A DNA stretch of 64,000 bases from Minisyncoccota bacterium (GTDB lineage: Bacteria > Patescibacteriota > Minisyncoccia > Phycocordibacterales > UBA918), in NCBI GenBank assembly GCA_041389025.1, contig JAWKSP010000001.1, positions 256,002-320,001 on the forward strand, given 5' to 3'. A program made the position numbers and the translations under genes. The notes under the pieces were generated by a model. The model worked only from the letters and a program-made list of their open reading frames with translations, did not search any database and had not been told where the DNA came from. Position 1 is the first letter of the stretch; each line of letters starts with the position of its first letter. Below are positions 58,129-63,583 of this stretch, in pieces.

Positions 58129-58644
58129 ATGAAATATGGGACAAAGAGTGGGGAAGTAATTGTAATTCCCCGAAAAGCGGATGAGCATTTAAAAGCTCAT
58201 CCGGAGGTAGCTGCAATTTTGCCTGAAACTATTGGGCGGGTTGTTTTGCCTCAGGATAATTCTTTCCTATCGACGGAAGTCGACATGGGACGAGTTGTAG
58301 GCCGGTCAGGGCGAGTGAAAACCCCCTTGATTGGTATTGAGGACAAGGCTCTTTTTGCCCAACGTATCGGACGAGATAAGCCGAGTCGGGTGATTGTTGG
58401 CGAGGGTGAGGAGACGACGAAAGTCACAATCCTTGCTTTTCCGTCCCGAGAAGAAATAGGTGTTTATGTTTTGGTAACTTCTTGGATCGGGACTTTGGCT
58501 CAGAAAGAGCCTTGGGATCCAATGATTAAAACCAAGCAAGAATATCAGAGATGTTTGCAATTCTGGTGTTCTAATGCTCTTGTTTGGAATTCTGTAGTAA
58601 TGTCGGAACCATTTGAGAGCAGTTGGGAAGAAATCCTTAAATAA
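58129..58644 (+). CDS. hypothetical protein (171 aa), first gene of a GC-rich island
   Basis: Ribosome-binding site AAGGAGGAG. GC is about 48%, against about 37% for the flanking genome. No known motif. Confidence 0.5.
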   Translation: MKYGTKSGEVIVIPRKADEHLKAHPEVAAILPETIGRVVLPQDNSFLSTEVDMGRVVGRSGRVKTPLIGIEDKALFAQRIGRDKPSRVIVGEGEETTKVTILAFPSREEIGVYVLVTSWIGTLAQKEPWDPMIKTKQEYQRCLQFWCSNALVWNSVVMSEPFESSWEEILK

Positions 58645-58806
58645 TTTTGAGGCAGTGGTATACCACTTAAATGTAATTACTACATAGAATTGGTATATCA
58701 ATTCTATGTGTGGTGATTCCCTACCAATAAGACAGGGAGGAGTGCAAGGTTAATCTGTGCCTGTAATGAAGCATAGATTGAGCGCTCAAACTCAAGGAGA
58801 ACAGAA

Positions 58807-59877
58807 ATGTTTAAGAAAATCAGTGATACACTTGGCAGTAAGTTTGTTTTTACTAGTGAGGTTGCCAGAGTCCTGTCCTTGGGATTTTCCGGCAAAAAGA
58901 ACGTCATCATTTTTGGACCGGCCGGTCACGGTAAGTCCGAGATGGTGCAATCGGTGGTAGAAGGTCTTGGTCTACAGGACGAGACATTCTGCCAATTTTT
59001 TGGGGAAGGTATGGATGAGGCCCGCCTTTTTGGTGGGTTGAATTTCAAAAAACTCGAGGAGGAAAAAGTCCTCGAGTACTTTCCCGAAAACAGTTTTCTC
59101 AACCATCGCATTGTGGTATTCGAGGAACTGTTTGACGCTCCGGCGTCGGTGTTGTTGGCGTTGAAAGACGTTTTGACAGCAAAAGAGCTCCGCAACGGAG
59201 CCCAGCGTTTCAAGATGAAGACGGAGATCATCATCTGCTTGACCAACAAGGAGCCTTCAGAGGTTTCTGAGTTGGGGCCGGCTGCTCACGCCTTAATTGA
59301 GCGTTTTCCTCTTCAGTTAAATCTGAAATGGAAAGATTATAGCTCAAAAAGTTACCTTTCGATGTTTGAAAAGGTGGCTGAGCGGTTAGGTGGACCTGTG
59401 ATGAACGGGTTTAAGGCTGTTTTGGCGGAAATTCTGGCTAAGGCAACCGAGGAGGGAAATTTTGTATCGCCCCGCACGGCGGTACATGCTTTTCAAGTGT
59501 GTCAGGCAAGCGCAGCAATGCGCGGGTCTGAACACGTGGAAAAGGAGGATTTAGTTGACCTTCGTTTCCTTCCTGGTCTTGAAGGTCTTGCTCAAACAAT
59601 TGAGGAAGACCTTAAGCGCGCGATGGAGCGTGCTGAGGCAGAAAAGAACATGCAAAAAATTGAGGAGCGTCTTCGTCCGCTCCTTAGAGACTTGGAAGGA
59701 GGTCAGACTCCTATCAAGTTTTTGCAAATTGCTAAATTCCTGCAAGATTTGCAGGATCTGGCAGCTAAGCTTACGGTCAGTGATGACCTAAGCGAAAAGC
59801 GGAAAAATTTGCGTGAACGGATTGGTACGGCAATTCCGCAAGCACAACAAAAAGCACTCGAGGTAACTCGGGTGTAG
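58807..59877 (+). CDS. MoxR-like AAA+ ATPase
   Basis: Walker A IIFGPAGHGKSEM, Walker B-like IVVFEELFDAP, sensor region ICLTNKEP, and ALIERFPLQL (the xxDRF-type motif of MoxR/AAA_3-5). Confidence 0.7.
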   Translation: MFKKISDTLGSKFVFTSEVARVLSLGFSGKKNVIIFGPAGHGKSEMVQSVVEGLGLQDETFCQFFGEGMDEARLFGGLNFKKLEEEKVLEYFPENSFLNHRIVVFEELFDAPASVLLALKDVLTAKELRNGAQRFKMKTEIIICLTNKEPSEVSELGPAAHALIERFPLQLNLKWKDYSSKSYLSMFEKVAERLGGPVMNGFKAVLAEILAKATEEGNFVSPRTAVHAFQVCQASAAMRGSEHVEKEDLVDLRFLPGLEGLAQTIEEDLKRAMERAEAEKNMQKIEERLRPLLRDLEGGQTPIKFLQIAKFLQDLQDLAAKLTVSDDLSEKRKNLRERIGTAIPQAQQKALEVTRV

Positions 59878-59925
59878 GTTTGGTTGGGTTTGCTCGAGTC
59901 ATTGGTTTTGGCTCGAGTACCCTCT
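59874..59925 (+). repeat. conserved intergenic hairpin element, copy 1 (GCTCGAG...CTCGAGC)
   Basis: gtaggtttggttgggtttgctcgagtcattggttttggctcgagtaccctct. A near-identical copy at 61381-61430 follows the next gene. Confidence 0.65.
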
Positions 59926-60025
59926 ACAGAATATAAAAGTAAAATAATTCTTTGAGTTATTTCATATTTATATTTTGTTTGGGTATTTTTCTAATCTTTT
60001 TTGTCCGTATGGATAAGGAGGTAAG

Positions 60026-61384: not shown

Positions 61385-61430
61385 GTTAGTGGTGGTTAGC
61401 TCGAGTCATTGGTTTTGGCTCGAGCACCTT
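61381..61430 (+). repeat. conserved intergenic hairpin element, copy 2
   Basis: gtaggttagtggtggttagctcgagtcattggttttggctcgagcaccttct. Confidence 0.65.
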
Positions 61431-62330
61431 CTCGAGTTTTTAATTGTTAGTAATAATAATTGAAGGCTCGTTGGGTGTTTAACTAAGAATAGGAGGAATC
61501 TACCGATGGACACCATAGGTCGGAGCTGTAACCGACAGAAAACAAGACAGTCAGAGGCTATGTTCTGACTAGATGGCGACTCCTGATACGGCATAGAACG
61601 TTGAAAGGCAGGAGGCCTCCTCGGACTAGAGGGGTTTTCGGAAACCAGACCGAAAAGGGAGTTCTTAAAGTGGACGACTACTCCCAAAAGAAAAAGTCAA
61701 GTGCTAAGCGTAAGGTGGAAGTTGCGTGTGTCACTCTACTGAAAATTCACGGGATAGAATAAAAATTTTCCCAGTTCCGATTTCTCTATGATTATGCACA
61801 GATCTAGAGTTATTAATAAAAAACTTTGTTTTTCTTTGCGAGAGAGAAATCTCTAGGCTAGTCGGCGCAGTGACTACTTAACGCACAAAGATAGGTTATC
61901 AAACACCGAGACAAGTTTTGTTGTAAAAGAAGCGAGGTTGCGCGGCTTACTTTTATTCACTTTCTAGTGAGGTACTTATTCTTTTGAATAAGATCAAACG
62001 CTTAAATGAACAAAGATAGTGCAGGTTGGGGAAACACTTGGTTATGTTTCTCTATAGTCAATTTAATTGGACTTGAGGGAGCAGATATGGTTTTTGTTCC
62101 CTCACTTTATTCAAGATATGAGGTTTACACTTCGTCTCTTGATAGAGTTAAACAGTTAAATCATTTCTAATCTCCTAACAAATTATTTTTTTAATTAAAC
62201 CATTAAAGTAGTTTGTTAGGAGATTAGTAAATTTCTAAAAACGGTTTGGTATCCGTTTTTTTATTTTGACTTGCAAAGAATTTACCGTCTTTGCACCCTA
62301 ACTCCGGGGTTCGGAGTAGAGGAAGTAAAA

Positions 62331-62963
62331 ATGGCTACACGTACATTAGAATTTGATGAAGTTGTTTCAGATTTGGTTGCATCTGATGCGACCAAAAAAA
62401 ATCAGAAGAAAATTTGTCACACTTGGGACGGTTGGGTGAGTAAAGGTGTGTTGCATGTCACAAGTCGTTCTGGTGCTAGGCGTCGTGAGATCTGGCACTT
62501 TGATGTGGAAAAAAATGCCGGACGACTCTTGTTTTTTAAGAATACGACCGGTACAGCTGATTGTTGGACAAAAGGGTGTGGTGACAATGCTCTGGAAAAA
62601 TTTATATTGGACATTAGTCCACATGTAAAAATACAACGTGTGTCTAATATAGACCATGTTGTACACTCTAGGGGAAGTTGTTGCAATCACAGCCTAAACA
62701 GATTCGGTGTGTGGTGCTATTACCTCACTGACGGATCTGAAGCCTTGATACACAAGGCAAACACTGTCAAAAGCCACTTCAACCAATATCACATTGGTTG
62801 TCCGACTGAGCCAGACCAAATAAGGGTTACGGGTGGCACTTACGCTGTTCAGTGGACAAATAAAAATACTCTAACGAGTATTGTTTATACTCCTGATGCA
62901 GATATGGCCTCTGTAATTGAGGCTATTAGAAGTAAACTAAGGAGTTGGGGGTATTACTCCTAG
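62331..62963 (+). CDS. hypothetical Cys-rich protein (about 210 aa)
   Basis: The start is taken at MATRTLEFDEV (ribosome-binding site GGAGTAGAGGAAG). Carries CWTKGCG and CCNHSLNRFGVWC cysteine clusters. No known family. Confidence 0.45.
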   Translation: MATRTLEFDEVVSDLVASDATKKNQKKICHTWDGWVSKGVLHVTSRSGARRREIWHFDVEKNAGRLLFFKNTTGTADCWTKGCGDNALEKFILDISPHVKIQRVSNIDHVVHSRGSCCNHSLNRFGVWCYYLTDGSEALIHKANTVKSHFNQYHIGCPTEPDQIRVTGGTYAVQWTNKNTLTSIVYTPDADMASVIEAIRSKLRSWGYYS

Positions 62964-63103
62964 AATATCTTCCACAAGCGGTTGGTTACGCTTGTGGGCT
63001 TTATTATCTAGCGGTGAGAATTATTTACGGCTGGATATAGAGTCTTGGATTATTTTTTAACTTTTTAACCCTTATTTTTGAGGGTAAATTTTTGGAGGCT
63101 GTT

Positions 63104-63583
63104 ATGACTAAAAAATATTCAGTAGTACCAGATTCAAAAGCAGAGGCTTTGGCCTTTGTGATTACCTGGGGTTTGAAGGAAGGGTATGGCAACGAGTCTG
63201 TTGTCCATACTCAAGAGGAAGCCACGTTTTATGTGGCTAAATTCCTCAAAAAATTTGCTGCCAAGATTGTACCTGGTAGCAAAAACTTCATCCCCTCCGG
63301 CACTCTCGTACCAGGTACTACAGTGTATGCCTGGAACGAGGGTGAGGGACGGTCGGGTGGTGGCCATGAACCCAGTGTTGTTTTTATGGGTGAGGTCACT
63401 GGCCCGTATAACACTTGGGGGCTTGACGATCACTCGATCACAGAAGCTGAGCTCGTTGAAATTTTGAACGAGTTCGCTTCTGAGGTCGGGTCGGCTCTCG
63501 GACAGACTCGGGTGTATGTTCGGCTAGGGGAAGTTAGCTGGATTCTCCAGCAGGAGAAGACAGCTACACCTACTGGTGATTAA
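63104..63583 (+). CDS. hypothetical protein (about 160 aa)
   Basis: The start is taken at MTKKYSVV (ribosome-binding site TGGAGG). GC-rich. A terminator hairpin lies at 63638-63665. Confidence 0.45.
   Translation: MTKKYSVVPDSKAEALAFVITWGLKEGYGNESVVHTQEEATFYVAKFLKKFAAKIVPGSKNFIPSGTLVPGTTVYAWNEGEGRSGGGHEPSVVFMGEVTGPYNTWGLDDHSITEAELVEILNEFASEVGSALGQTRVYVRLGEVSWILQQEKTATPTGD

Follow-up and report, generated by a model that had tools for sequence, protein, structure and literature searches.

A conserved MoxR–vWA gene cassette of Candidate Phyla Radiation bacteria with a predicted RelE-like partner protein and its own structured RNA elements

Pairs of a MoxR-type AAA+ ATPase and a von Willebrand factor A (vWA) protein are widespread, and their mechanism is understood for few clients. 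Among other proteins that carry such domains, Ro60/Rsr combines a TROVE part with a vWA domain and occurs with Y RNAs, and midasin/Rea1 combines an AAA_5 ring, an acidic linker and a metal ion-dependent adhesion site (MIDAS). It has been reported that the MoxR–vWA pairs studied are ATP-driven remodellers with a MIDAS contact (PMC9976466, PMC13036017). Ternary conflict systems, in which MoxR and vWA are joined by a β-propeller or VMAP component, were described by Kaur, Burroughs, Iyer and Aravind in 2020, in a paper of which one passage sets the Candidate Phyla Radiation (CPR) aside in its statistics (PMC7159879). In the literature searched, no MoxR–vWA pair of CPR bacteria has been described. 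Here, a locus with such a pair is analysed in a 64,000-nucleotide (nt) stretch of DNA from a Minisyncoccota bacterium (contig JAWKSP010000001.1, positions 256,002 to 320,001; this whole stretch is called the window, and positions are numbered within it). A first-pass annotation had described positions 58129–63583 as a GC-rich foreign island; the feature is real, but it was mis-bounded and partly misinterpreted. It is well supported that the locus is a chromosomal cassette common to many CPR/Patescibacteria lineages, that it extends in the window over about 53259–61775, and that the interval first annotated is its right half together with unrelated neighbours. The order of parts is equally well supported: a large GNAT-domain protein, a TrmB-like regulator encoded on the other strand, a long 5′ region that includes a hairpin element (E2), a 171-residue protein (p171), a pseudoknotted leader RNA, a MoxR AAA+ ATPase, a hairpin, a vWA-MIDAS protein, and a final hairpin or 3′ RNA. 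The genes and the leader are located as follows.

53259–55631, forward strand: large protein of 790 aa, with a variable helical N-terminal part and a conserved C-terminal domain of GNAT acetyltransferase fold
55628–56458, reverse strand: TrmB-like winged-helix regulator, divergent from the MoxR operon (Pfam TrmB, 33.1 bits; cut-off 25.6)
58129–58644, forward strand: p171, 171 aa, with a predicted RelE/ParE/BrnT-like (BECR-type) core
58680–58797, forward strand: type 1 leader RNA of about 120 nt, ending 9 nt before the MoxR ATG, next to its Shine–Dalgarno sequence
58807–59877, forward strand: MoxR-type AAA+ ATPase, 356 aa (Pfam bpMoxR and AAA_5; Walker A motif GPAGHGKS)
60026–61384, forward strand: vWA protein, 452 aa; its N-terminal part is helical and includes an acidic stretch, and its C-terminal vWA domain carries a complete MIDAS

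About 60 related loci, some 50 of them distinct, were gathered from species-representative genomes, exact-protein look-ups and a pure DNA-pattern scan of metagenomes, and are labelled L001, L002 and so on. By tblastn, the trio p171 (+), MoxR (+) and vWA (+) recurs in about 50 distinct CPR loci, usually preceded by the large protein (+), the TrmB-like gene (−) and a spacer of 0.7–2.5 kb; the TrmB-like gene holds the same position and orientation in 24 distinct loci, and vWA adjoins MoxR in every locus that contains both genes. The large protein is a conserved upstream member of the cassette, with an N-terminal half that is highly variable between lineages. The genes outside the cassette vary between genomes and are housekeeping genes, such as those for CCA-adding enzyme, EngA, PNPase, Pth, RuvA, TsaE, S6/SSB/S18 and S20; in the window, the core genes upstream include NusA, trigger factor, RNase Y, type IV pilus genes, TIM and PGK. 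It is very probable that the locus is a conserved CPR cassette with dedicated cis-acting RNAs and not a recent island. The window vWA, p171 and large proteins are identical to the NCBI proteins R3B60_01665, R3B60_01655 and R3B60_01635, respectively.

The base composition, from which foreign DNA had originally been suspected, leads to the same conclusion. The p171–MoxR–vWA stretch (58129–61384) has a GC content of 46.2%, compared to a mean of 36.4% (standard deviation 1.6, maximum 40.7%) in equal-length stretches of positions 1–56000, and the GC content at third codon positions (GC3) is 0.50 in MoxR, 0.46 in vWA and 0.40 in p171, compared to 0.31 ± 0.05 in 35 other open reading frames (ORFs), so that the excess extends to synonymous positions. 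The value of 48–50% given earlier is near the truth for the MoxR and vWA genes (47.6% and 47.9%) but overstated for 58129–63583 as a whole (44.4%). In nearly all of 30 loci tested, p171, MoxR and vWA lie 8–20 GC points above their flanks, and the large protein and TrmB have no such offset; the excess is therefore a property of the cassette and not a sign of recent import into the window genome. With the same internal order in some 50 loci, varied housekeeping flanks and an offset found nearly everywhere, the foreign-island reading is not supported; there are no adjacent mobility genes, and integrase-family genes were seen only about 8–10 kb away, in two loci. In the window, no integrase or transposase adjoins the cassette, the nearest tRNA lies at 25.3 kb, and there is no att-like boundary next to the cassette. 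The first-pass annotation had itself named housekeeping homologues of the flanking proteins, core synteny and uniform GC as grounds for giving the island up: synteny proved to be lineage-wide, which speaks against it, while an uneven GC content and the lack of housekeeping homologues of the partner proteins speak for it. All the ORFs that it listed were found where they had been placed, but the cassette does not begin at 58129: conserved partners lie further upstream, at 53259–56910.

The cassette's two halves differ in their history. Across 39 loci, the identities of p171 and of MoxR to their window counterparts are uncorrelated (r = 0.00), whereas those of vWA and MoxR go together (r = 0.82). 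For instance, L047 is 71% identical to the window in TrmB, 65% in p171, 53% in MoxR and 52% in vWA, while L060 is 31% identical in p171, 83% in MoxR and 74% in vWA. Relative to the window, p171 falls into two classes (about 65% and about 31% identity) that assort independently of MoxR–vWA similarity. These sequence comparisons point to recombination or lateral exchange of the cassette halves among CPR lineages, with the break between the p171 and MoxR genes. Two loci have other surroundings: in L002 (15343–16094), a variant of an L001-type locus, TAGT and terminase genes lie about 9 kb downstream of the cassette, and L031 is an IMG/VR contig, so the cassette may occasionally adjoin or be carried by CPR phages.

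Conserved structured RNA is present at the locus, as had been supposed; the RNA best supported by covariation sits within the 162-bp spacer that separates p171 from MoxR and is not the one in the 0.9-kb gap behind vWA. This spacer is conserved as DNA in most loci. The leader RNA in it consists of a variable hairpin P0 (58680–58709) and a core (58710–58797), in which a three-base-pair GGY/RCC helix forms an H-type pseudoknot over P2 (UUCCCY/RGGGAG); P1 (GAGUGC/GCGC-UCAAA-CUC) is the closing helix, and P3 is a long hairpin whose loop is conserved. In 20 sequences (alignments A2 and A4), the covariation is 0.546, compared to 0.185 ± 0.018 in shuffled alignments (0 of 500 reach the observed value) and 0.10–0.18 with slid partners; 86.5% of the cells are paired, and double changes occur in 19 of 27 pairs. 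A second set, A9 (18 copies, 16 distinct sequences), gives 92.4% paired cells and a covariation of 0.551 against 0.168 when shuffled; its copies were outside model building, but they were found by a motif-derived pattern and aligned to the model, which makes the set not fully independent. The covariance model (R1) finds a single copy per locus, scoring 45–96 bits and in every case just 5′ of MoxR; neither elsewhere in the window nor in any other gene context did it find another. A scan of metagenomes for the leader pattern yielded 24 loci. A MoxR homologue on the same strand directly follows the motif in 23 of them, and the 24th contig has p171 upstream and ends just past the motif. The same pattern gave 0 hits in 2.9 million viral contigs.

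No Rfam 15 family (4227 in all) matches the leader, even at E ≤ 10 on 58640–58830 (191 nt), and for the RNA elements as a whole only tRNAs reach gathering scores in the window, with nothing credible at E ≤ 1 in 56300–64000. In the leader alignment 21 columns are invariant, and many of these are unpaired. The segment that separates the motif from the start codon varies: in some loci the Shine–Dalgarno sequence comes directly after P1, in others there is an extra hairpin or terminator-like stem. In L006, L019, L022, L023 and L024, a second type of leader takes the same place, about 120 nt upstream of MoxR; it has the terminal hairpin loop of type 1 and reads ...CUUGCCCCUCCCCAGGGCAAGCCCAAUCC-hairpin(CAACAAUCG)-GGAGGUUUGC-AUG, with the Shine–Dalgarno GGAGG paired, a probable pseudoknot, and, with five sequences, little covariation support. 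The variable segment, which resembles an expression platform, and the paired Shine–Dalgarno sequence of type 2 lend support to the idea of a switch. As a conserved element of the 5′ untranslated region with covariation and a tie to one gene class, the leader is, judged by sequence, a riboswitch candidate. It resembles orphan riboswitch candidates and other cis-regulatory leaders in its length of about 90–120 nt, its position in a 5′ untranslated region, its pseudoknot, its invariant unpaired nucleotides, its strong covariation and its single gene class; unlike them, it has no counterpart in Rfam 15 and is known from CPR-type contigs only. The literature search returned nothing relevant on CPR MoxR–vWA or an associated RNA motif.

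The ATPase belongs to the MoxR class, bpMoxR subfamily (PF20030), by sequence and is a predicted ATPase. The MoxR reading of the first-pass annotation holds: the protein passes the Pfam thresholds of bpMoxR (57.4 bits, cut-off 27) and AAA_5 (41.7 bits, cut-off 22), and the motifs GPAGHGKS and ERFP are read in its translation. It is 44–83% identical across CPR loci, RavA is the sole solved relative found by sequence in the PDB (E = 2.5e-5), and its C-terminal region is probably a coiled coil, judging by its residues. The earlier reading of the vWA protein as carrying an intact DxSxS MIDAS also holds, all five MIDAS residues (D306, S308, S310, T376 and D408) being invariant in 34 homologues. It is slightly below the Pfam thresholds of VWA_2 (22.3, cut-off 27) and VWA (20.8, cut-off 23.8), both of which are assigned to many of its homologues; the homologues also carry the Pfam annotation VWA_CoxE. 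More than 320 homologues exist, and the 120 listed are 50–82% identical, those named among the matches listed coming from Nomura-, Uhr-, Moran- and Paceibacteria and CPR2. Against the PDB, the vWA profile matches generic vWA domains only. A TROVE/Ro60 reading of the N-terminal part was tried by hhalign against a phage Ro60-like protein and rejected, as only the MIDAS loop aligned.

Among known systems, the chaperone pairs RavA–ViaA, NorQ–NorD, CbbQ–CbbO and CoxD–CoxE share with the cassette the logic of a MoxR AAA+ ring with a MIDAS vWA adaptor, with RavA as the one solved relative found by sequence and with the VWA_CoxE tags. The cassette differs in that no respiratory, RuBisCO, CODH or NOR client lies nearby and the operon partner is a RelE-fold protein by prediction; moreover, the ATPase has a C-terminal extension of its own (the putative coiled coil), and the 290-residue N-terminal part of the vWA protein has no detectable relatives. 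By analogy, the cassette would work like a MoxR–vWA chaperone pair, yet it has no recognisable client of the known kinds. Ro60/Rsr is similar in joining a vWA-MIDAS protein with structured RNAs, and differs because the N-terminal part of the cassette vWA protein is not TROVE-like. Midasin/Rea1 is similar in its AAA_5-type ATPase, acidic stretch and MIDAS domain, a likeness to be taken as a lead only.

The third protein of the operon, p171, is a genuine conserved partner, and the first-pass annotation rightly counted it as an associated component, since it is conserved in CPR loci alongside MoxR–vWA. Its invariant residues are H20, H24, R79, R82 and the EPWD motif (127–130). A high-confidence predicted model gives fold matches to RelE, BrnT and CdiA-CT, with 2pd0, a structure of unknown function, as best structural match. 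On this model p171 resembles RelE-fold toxins without belonging to the family: it has no Pfam, NCBIfam or PADLOC match, which speaks against sequence membership in RelE, ParE, HigB or YoeB, and no antitoxin gene adjoins it, its neighbours being the leader RNA and MoxR, or the 5′ region. Compared to the RelE/ParE/BrnT and CdiA-CT RNase toxins of the BECR fold, p171 is twice as large and has an extra N-terminal helical hairpin with an invariant HLxAHPEV motif. The ribbon-helix-helix (RHH) gene at 57495–57707 is not its antitoxin, since this gene is the partner of a RelE-like toxin of its own and is missing from other loci. The public annotation apparently starts p171 (119 aa) and vWA (433 aa) too late, because homologue alignments are conserved from residues 1–5 onwards (H20 and H24 of p171; R5, T6 and P8 of vWA); good Shine–Dalgarno sequences precede the longer ORFs, and the start codons of both genes are corrected here.

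The only annotated relatives of p171 are proteins of PHROG 23674 from the jumbo phages CBB, GAP32, fHe-Yen9-04 and XbC2 and the Pseudomonas phages Milchi and Astolliot. These homologues are located within tRNA-gene arrays, near genes for RNase H-like, Ro60-like and peptidyl-tRNA hydrolase proteins, with no MoxR or vWA alongside. In Pectobacterium phage CBB (L061), the p171-family gene lies at 272817–273290; in Pseudomonas phage Milchi (L062), the neighbours include an RNase H-like protein (PF04308), and a 462-aa 'RNA-binding protein' nearby has, by eye only, a Ro60-type look of TROVE plus vWA. A phage origin of the cassette by way of p171 was considered and rejected, given that MoxR and vWA are not next to the jumbo-phage homologues and that the ATPase adjacent in CBB, a classical AAA, falls in a different PHROG. 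A Foldseek search with p171 among viral structures gave nothing significant.

The remaining elements belong to the 5′ region and the 3′ end of the cassette.

56551–56579, forward strand: sigma-70-like promoter match TTGACA-17-TATGCT with TG, facing the operon (consensus match only)
56643–56825, forward strand: unannotated 60-aa ORF between TrmB and E2
56844–56899, forward strand: E2, a long hairpin with internal loop AUCGG/GAAAU and apical loop YUAACC, starting about 20 nt after the stop of the 60-aa ORF
57210–57707, reverse strand: RelE/ParE-like toxin (57210–57467) and RHH antitoxin (57495–57707), a lineage-specific insertion
59873–59936, forward strand: post-gene hairpin, copy 1 (GCUCGAGUCA-UUGGUUUUG-GCUCGAG), beginning at the MoxR stop codon
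61380–61443, forward strand: post-gene hairpin, copy 2, directly after the vWA stop
61385–61775, forward strand: post-vWA structured RNA, opening with hairpin copy 2, in the nearest sublineage only
61506–61568, forward strand: micro-ORF of 11–20 codons in the post-vWA RNA, with a strong Shine–Dalgarno AGGAGG at 8-nt spacing
62237–62260, forward strand: intrinsic-terminator-like hairpin with a T-run, from a terminator scan; likely the 3′ end of the operon transcript
62331–62963: Cys-rich protein of 210 aa with two modules, residues 1–85 and about 100–205

The promoter match is the top promoter-like site in 55.5–64 kb; its block is conserved with L047 and L036, and TTGACAAT-type boxes recur in relatives. 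The 60-aa ORF has protein-level matches (VTTAESVADKE...LHxxGDRPQTHL) with in-frame indels in L058, where a 65-aa gene is called, in L036, L038, L039 and L047, and in L055; it was not found in distant loci and, on sequence, is probably a real small gene of this sublineage. Apart from the window, nhmmer detects E2 in 20 distinct loci, in each of them on the operon strand and placed between TrmB and p171; compensatory changes occur in 15 of 20 pairs (18-sequence alignment A7). All four exact copies of the octamer GGAGAGAG in the window lie on the forward strand within the 1.5-kb TrmB–p171 spacer (56612, 57090, 57123 and 58094; 0.92 expected by chance); similar boxes, often GGAGAGAGRCCUG, recur in this spacer of other loci, and they could act as an operator, as a standby site for ribosomes or as a repeat bound by protein.

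The RelE/RHH pair, which the first-pass annotation had taken to mark the edge of the island, is an insertion inside the 5′ region of the cassette, with no homologue in any other related locus and a host-like GC content of 34.5%. The naming of the pair is confirmed for the RHH antitoxin, which passes Pfam (35.9 bits), but the toxin has only sub-threshold ParE/HigB/YafQ matches. The RelE/RHH operon probably terminates on the reverse strand at 56939–56982, where a perfect, G+C-rich hairpin of 20 bp precedes a T-run; a second terminator-like hairpin on that strand lies upstream of the operon at 57950–57976, and the two may insulate the insertion from the cassette. In L047 (8425–10000, reverse strand), between E2 and p171, GC-rich inserted genes occupy the position of the RelE/RHH pair, and one of them resembles nucleoside-diphosphate kinase by eye. 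The TrmB–p171 spacer seems to be an insertion hot spot. As for the large protein at the left end, a PrkA/YeaH-like module was considered and rejected: PrkA_C was sub-threshold in three of 30 homologues, and the fold search gave the GNAT domain instead.

The two post-gene hairpins form a 64-nt direct repeat, 80% identical, and related hairpins with compensatory changes occur in L025, L057–L060, L063 and L064. In some close relatives, L058 (7517–8000) and L065 (2265–2742), the MoxR–vWA spacer is expanded from about 150 to about 480 nt; the two expansions are 70% identical to each other and may hold a further RNA element or small gene. The gap at 61385–62330 contains no convincing ORF and its start is structured, as the first-pass annotation had said of the whole 0.9 kb, but it is not one unit: 61385–61710 (46% GC) is conserved in close relatives and 61711–62330 (35% GC) is an unconserved spacer. 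Its first 390 nt or so are 67–92% identical in L058, L063 and L064, directly after vWA, with 22 of 93 predicted pairs compensatory in an alignment of only four sequences, and the first 396 nt fold with z = −3.85. The micro-ORF has a core R-[IS]-C-x-R-Q conserved in the same three loci; it overlaps a conserved hairpin, so that coding and structure are inseparable there. Beyond the gap, the 210-aa protein and a 163-aa protein are absent from all of the roughly 60 related loci, and the suggestion that they are associated components falls away. The 210-aa protein has no Pfam, PHROG or PADLOC match; its family comprises 56 representative clusters among 1.84 billion proteins, in which the modules also occur separately or in proteins of 400–450 aa. 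On the other side of the cassette, 2–9 kb upstream (44223–51084), there are genes of a type IV pilus, namely PilB-like T2SSE, PilC-like T2SSF and a pilin with CarboxypepD_reg domains; in L065 a T2SSE gene directly follows the cassette, and this proximity is probably coincidence.

From the anatomy, conservation, RNA structures and exclusive operon association of these elements, we infer how the module may be regulated and what it may do. The TrmB-like protein would control the divergent promoters, and the operon mRNA would carry structured elements between its cistrons. The leader would gate MoxR–vWA translation, with UUCCCY pairing either with the internal purine tract RGGGAGGAG, in which case the leader is folded and the Shine–Dalgarno sequence free, or with the true Shine–Dalgarno sequence 3′ of P1; what triggers this switch would be either a small ligand or one of the system's own proteins. 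By analogy with the studied pairs, a MoxR hexamer and its vWA adaptor would use ATP and a contact between the MIDAS and an acidic residue to remodel one dedicated client. This client or partner would be p171, the protein that regularly shares their operon, with its predicted RelE/BECR-type fold, acting on RNA, either mRNA on the ribosome or tRNA, and the module would be a tightly regulated RNA-directed stress or translation-control device and not an enzyme-maturation factor. The overall account, a conserved RNA-regulated MoxR–vWA cassette with p171 and including this mechanism, is given a probability of roughly 55%; the specific p171/RNA-directed mechanism, taken by itself, is put forward tentatively. 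A more speculative extension, thought unlikely, is that the leader is the aptamer of a new riboswitch class, or an RNA subunit or recognition site of a MoxR–vWA–p171 ribonucleoprotein, and is confined to CPR/Patescibacteria; in that case no MoxR–vWA machine before this one would have had RNA or ribosomes as its target, and the cassette would be a bacterial version, in split form, of midasin-type remodelling, coupled to a RelE-fold RNase and a GNAT acetyltransferase. Several points weigh against the overall account. The identities of p171 and MoxR are uncorrelated, so the halves recombine freely, which weakens the argument from client–chaperone co-evolution; in some loci p171 lies after vWA or is undetected; and instead of forming a switch, the conserved RNAs could serve processing or stability or be bound by protein.

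Two other readings concern the proteins. The locus could be a horizontally acquired defence or conflict island of the ternary vWA–MoxR–VMAP/β-propeller kind, with p171 as RNase effector and the flanking unknowns and the gap as sensor or effector parts. The link to such systems drawn by the first-pass annotation is sound as far as the pair goes, since the best Pfam model for the ATPase, whose gathering score it passes, is bpMoxR, defined on ternary systems and named by Pfam after them; a MIDAS-vWA protein stands in the same operon, and a protein of predicted toxin-like RelE/CdiA-CT fold alongside. The atypical GC3, the mosaic ancestry of the halves, a 5′ region that takes insertions such as the toxin–antitoxin pair, and a weak PADLOC 'mad8' match (E = 7e-7) fit as well. 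The third component, however, was not found: VMAP, β-propeller, WD40, iSTAND, kinase and FHA domains are lacking in the nine window proteins scanned (five in the interval and four upstream; Pfam, PADLOC and NCBIfam) and in the precomputed Pfam annotation of 12 related contigs, and no listed effector domain is present, so the cassette is not a canonical ternary conflict system. Its distribution combines conserved internal synteny, housekeeping flanks and high conservation, yet with the atypical GC3 and mosaic halves just mentioned. MoxR and vWA remain 44–83% identical across CPR classes with the MIDAS and many other residues invariant, unlike fast-evolving defence genes; the cassette lies among core genes with no adjacent mobility genes, its GC offset is nearly universal and not peculiar to the window genome, and the 210-aa and 163-aa proteins are not conserved partners. 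It also has dedicated structured RNAs, and a keyword search of the paper on the ternary systems (PMC7159879) found none described for them. An island of this kind is accordingly judged improbable, and the GC anomaly, the RelE/RHH pair and the 210-aa and 163-aa proteins are not to be read as its parts. About equally improbable is a classical maturation chaperone, in which MoxR–vWA would insert a metal or cofactor into a client or assemble it, most likely the GNAT-domain protein, and the RNAs would merely tune expression. All experimentally studied MoxR–vWA pairs work in this mode (PMC9976466, PMC13036017, PMC3893208), the vWA homologues are annotated VWA_CoxE, the GNAT protein and TrmB are syntenic with the pair, and high conservation suits a housekeeping role; but no metalloenzyme gene lies nearby, the GNAT protein has a highly variable N-terminal half and is separately transcribed, the operon holds p171 in its place, and the similarity to NorD, CbbO, ViaA and CobT is that of generic vWA domains only.

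A prophage or mobile-element remnant, in which phages would have supplied the GC-rich genes as morons and the RNAs as regulatory elements, is very improbable: the phage homologues of p171 have no MoxR or vWA, the leader pattern occurs 24 times in metagenomes and not at all in the viral contigs, most loci have core-gene flanks and no structural phage genes, and no tRNA or att-like boundary adjoins the cassette in the window. What such an origin would explain is the place of p171 in PHROG 23674 with its jumbo-phage homologues, the weak matches of MoxR to phage ATPase PHROGs, the IMG/VR contig of L031 and the terminase gene about 9 kb downstream in L002. The reading closest in weight to the preferred account, and a real possibility although short of even odds, is that the RNA elements are not sensors and serve as intercistronic processing or stability hairpins, or as autoregulatory sites for p171 or vWA after the manner of ribosomal-protein leaders. 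Each cistron is indeed followed by conserved structure: the small ORF by E2, p171 by the leader, and both MoxR and vWA by the repeated hairpin. In addition, p171 has a predicted fold like that of RNA-binding toxins, and the leader, in the manner of protein-binding leaders, accompanies one operon only. The 21 invariant columns of the leader, many unpaired, its pseudoknot and its variable expression platforms are, on the other hand, the usual signature of an aptamer; computation does not tell these options apart.

CPR bacteria, whose genomes are very small, account for a large part of bacterial diversity. The RNA motifs described here are new in that they have no Rfam match and were not found in the literature searched, while the MoxR–vWA pair itself is a known kind of system. 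Retention of the cassette across many CPR classes, with proteins 44–83% identical, indicates that it likely matters for CPR biology, and, to judge by its compositional offset and its mosaic ancestry, it has evolved in an unusual way. If the leader does sense a ligand, this ligand would reveal what the MoxR–vWA module responds to and would provide an entry point into its function.

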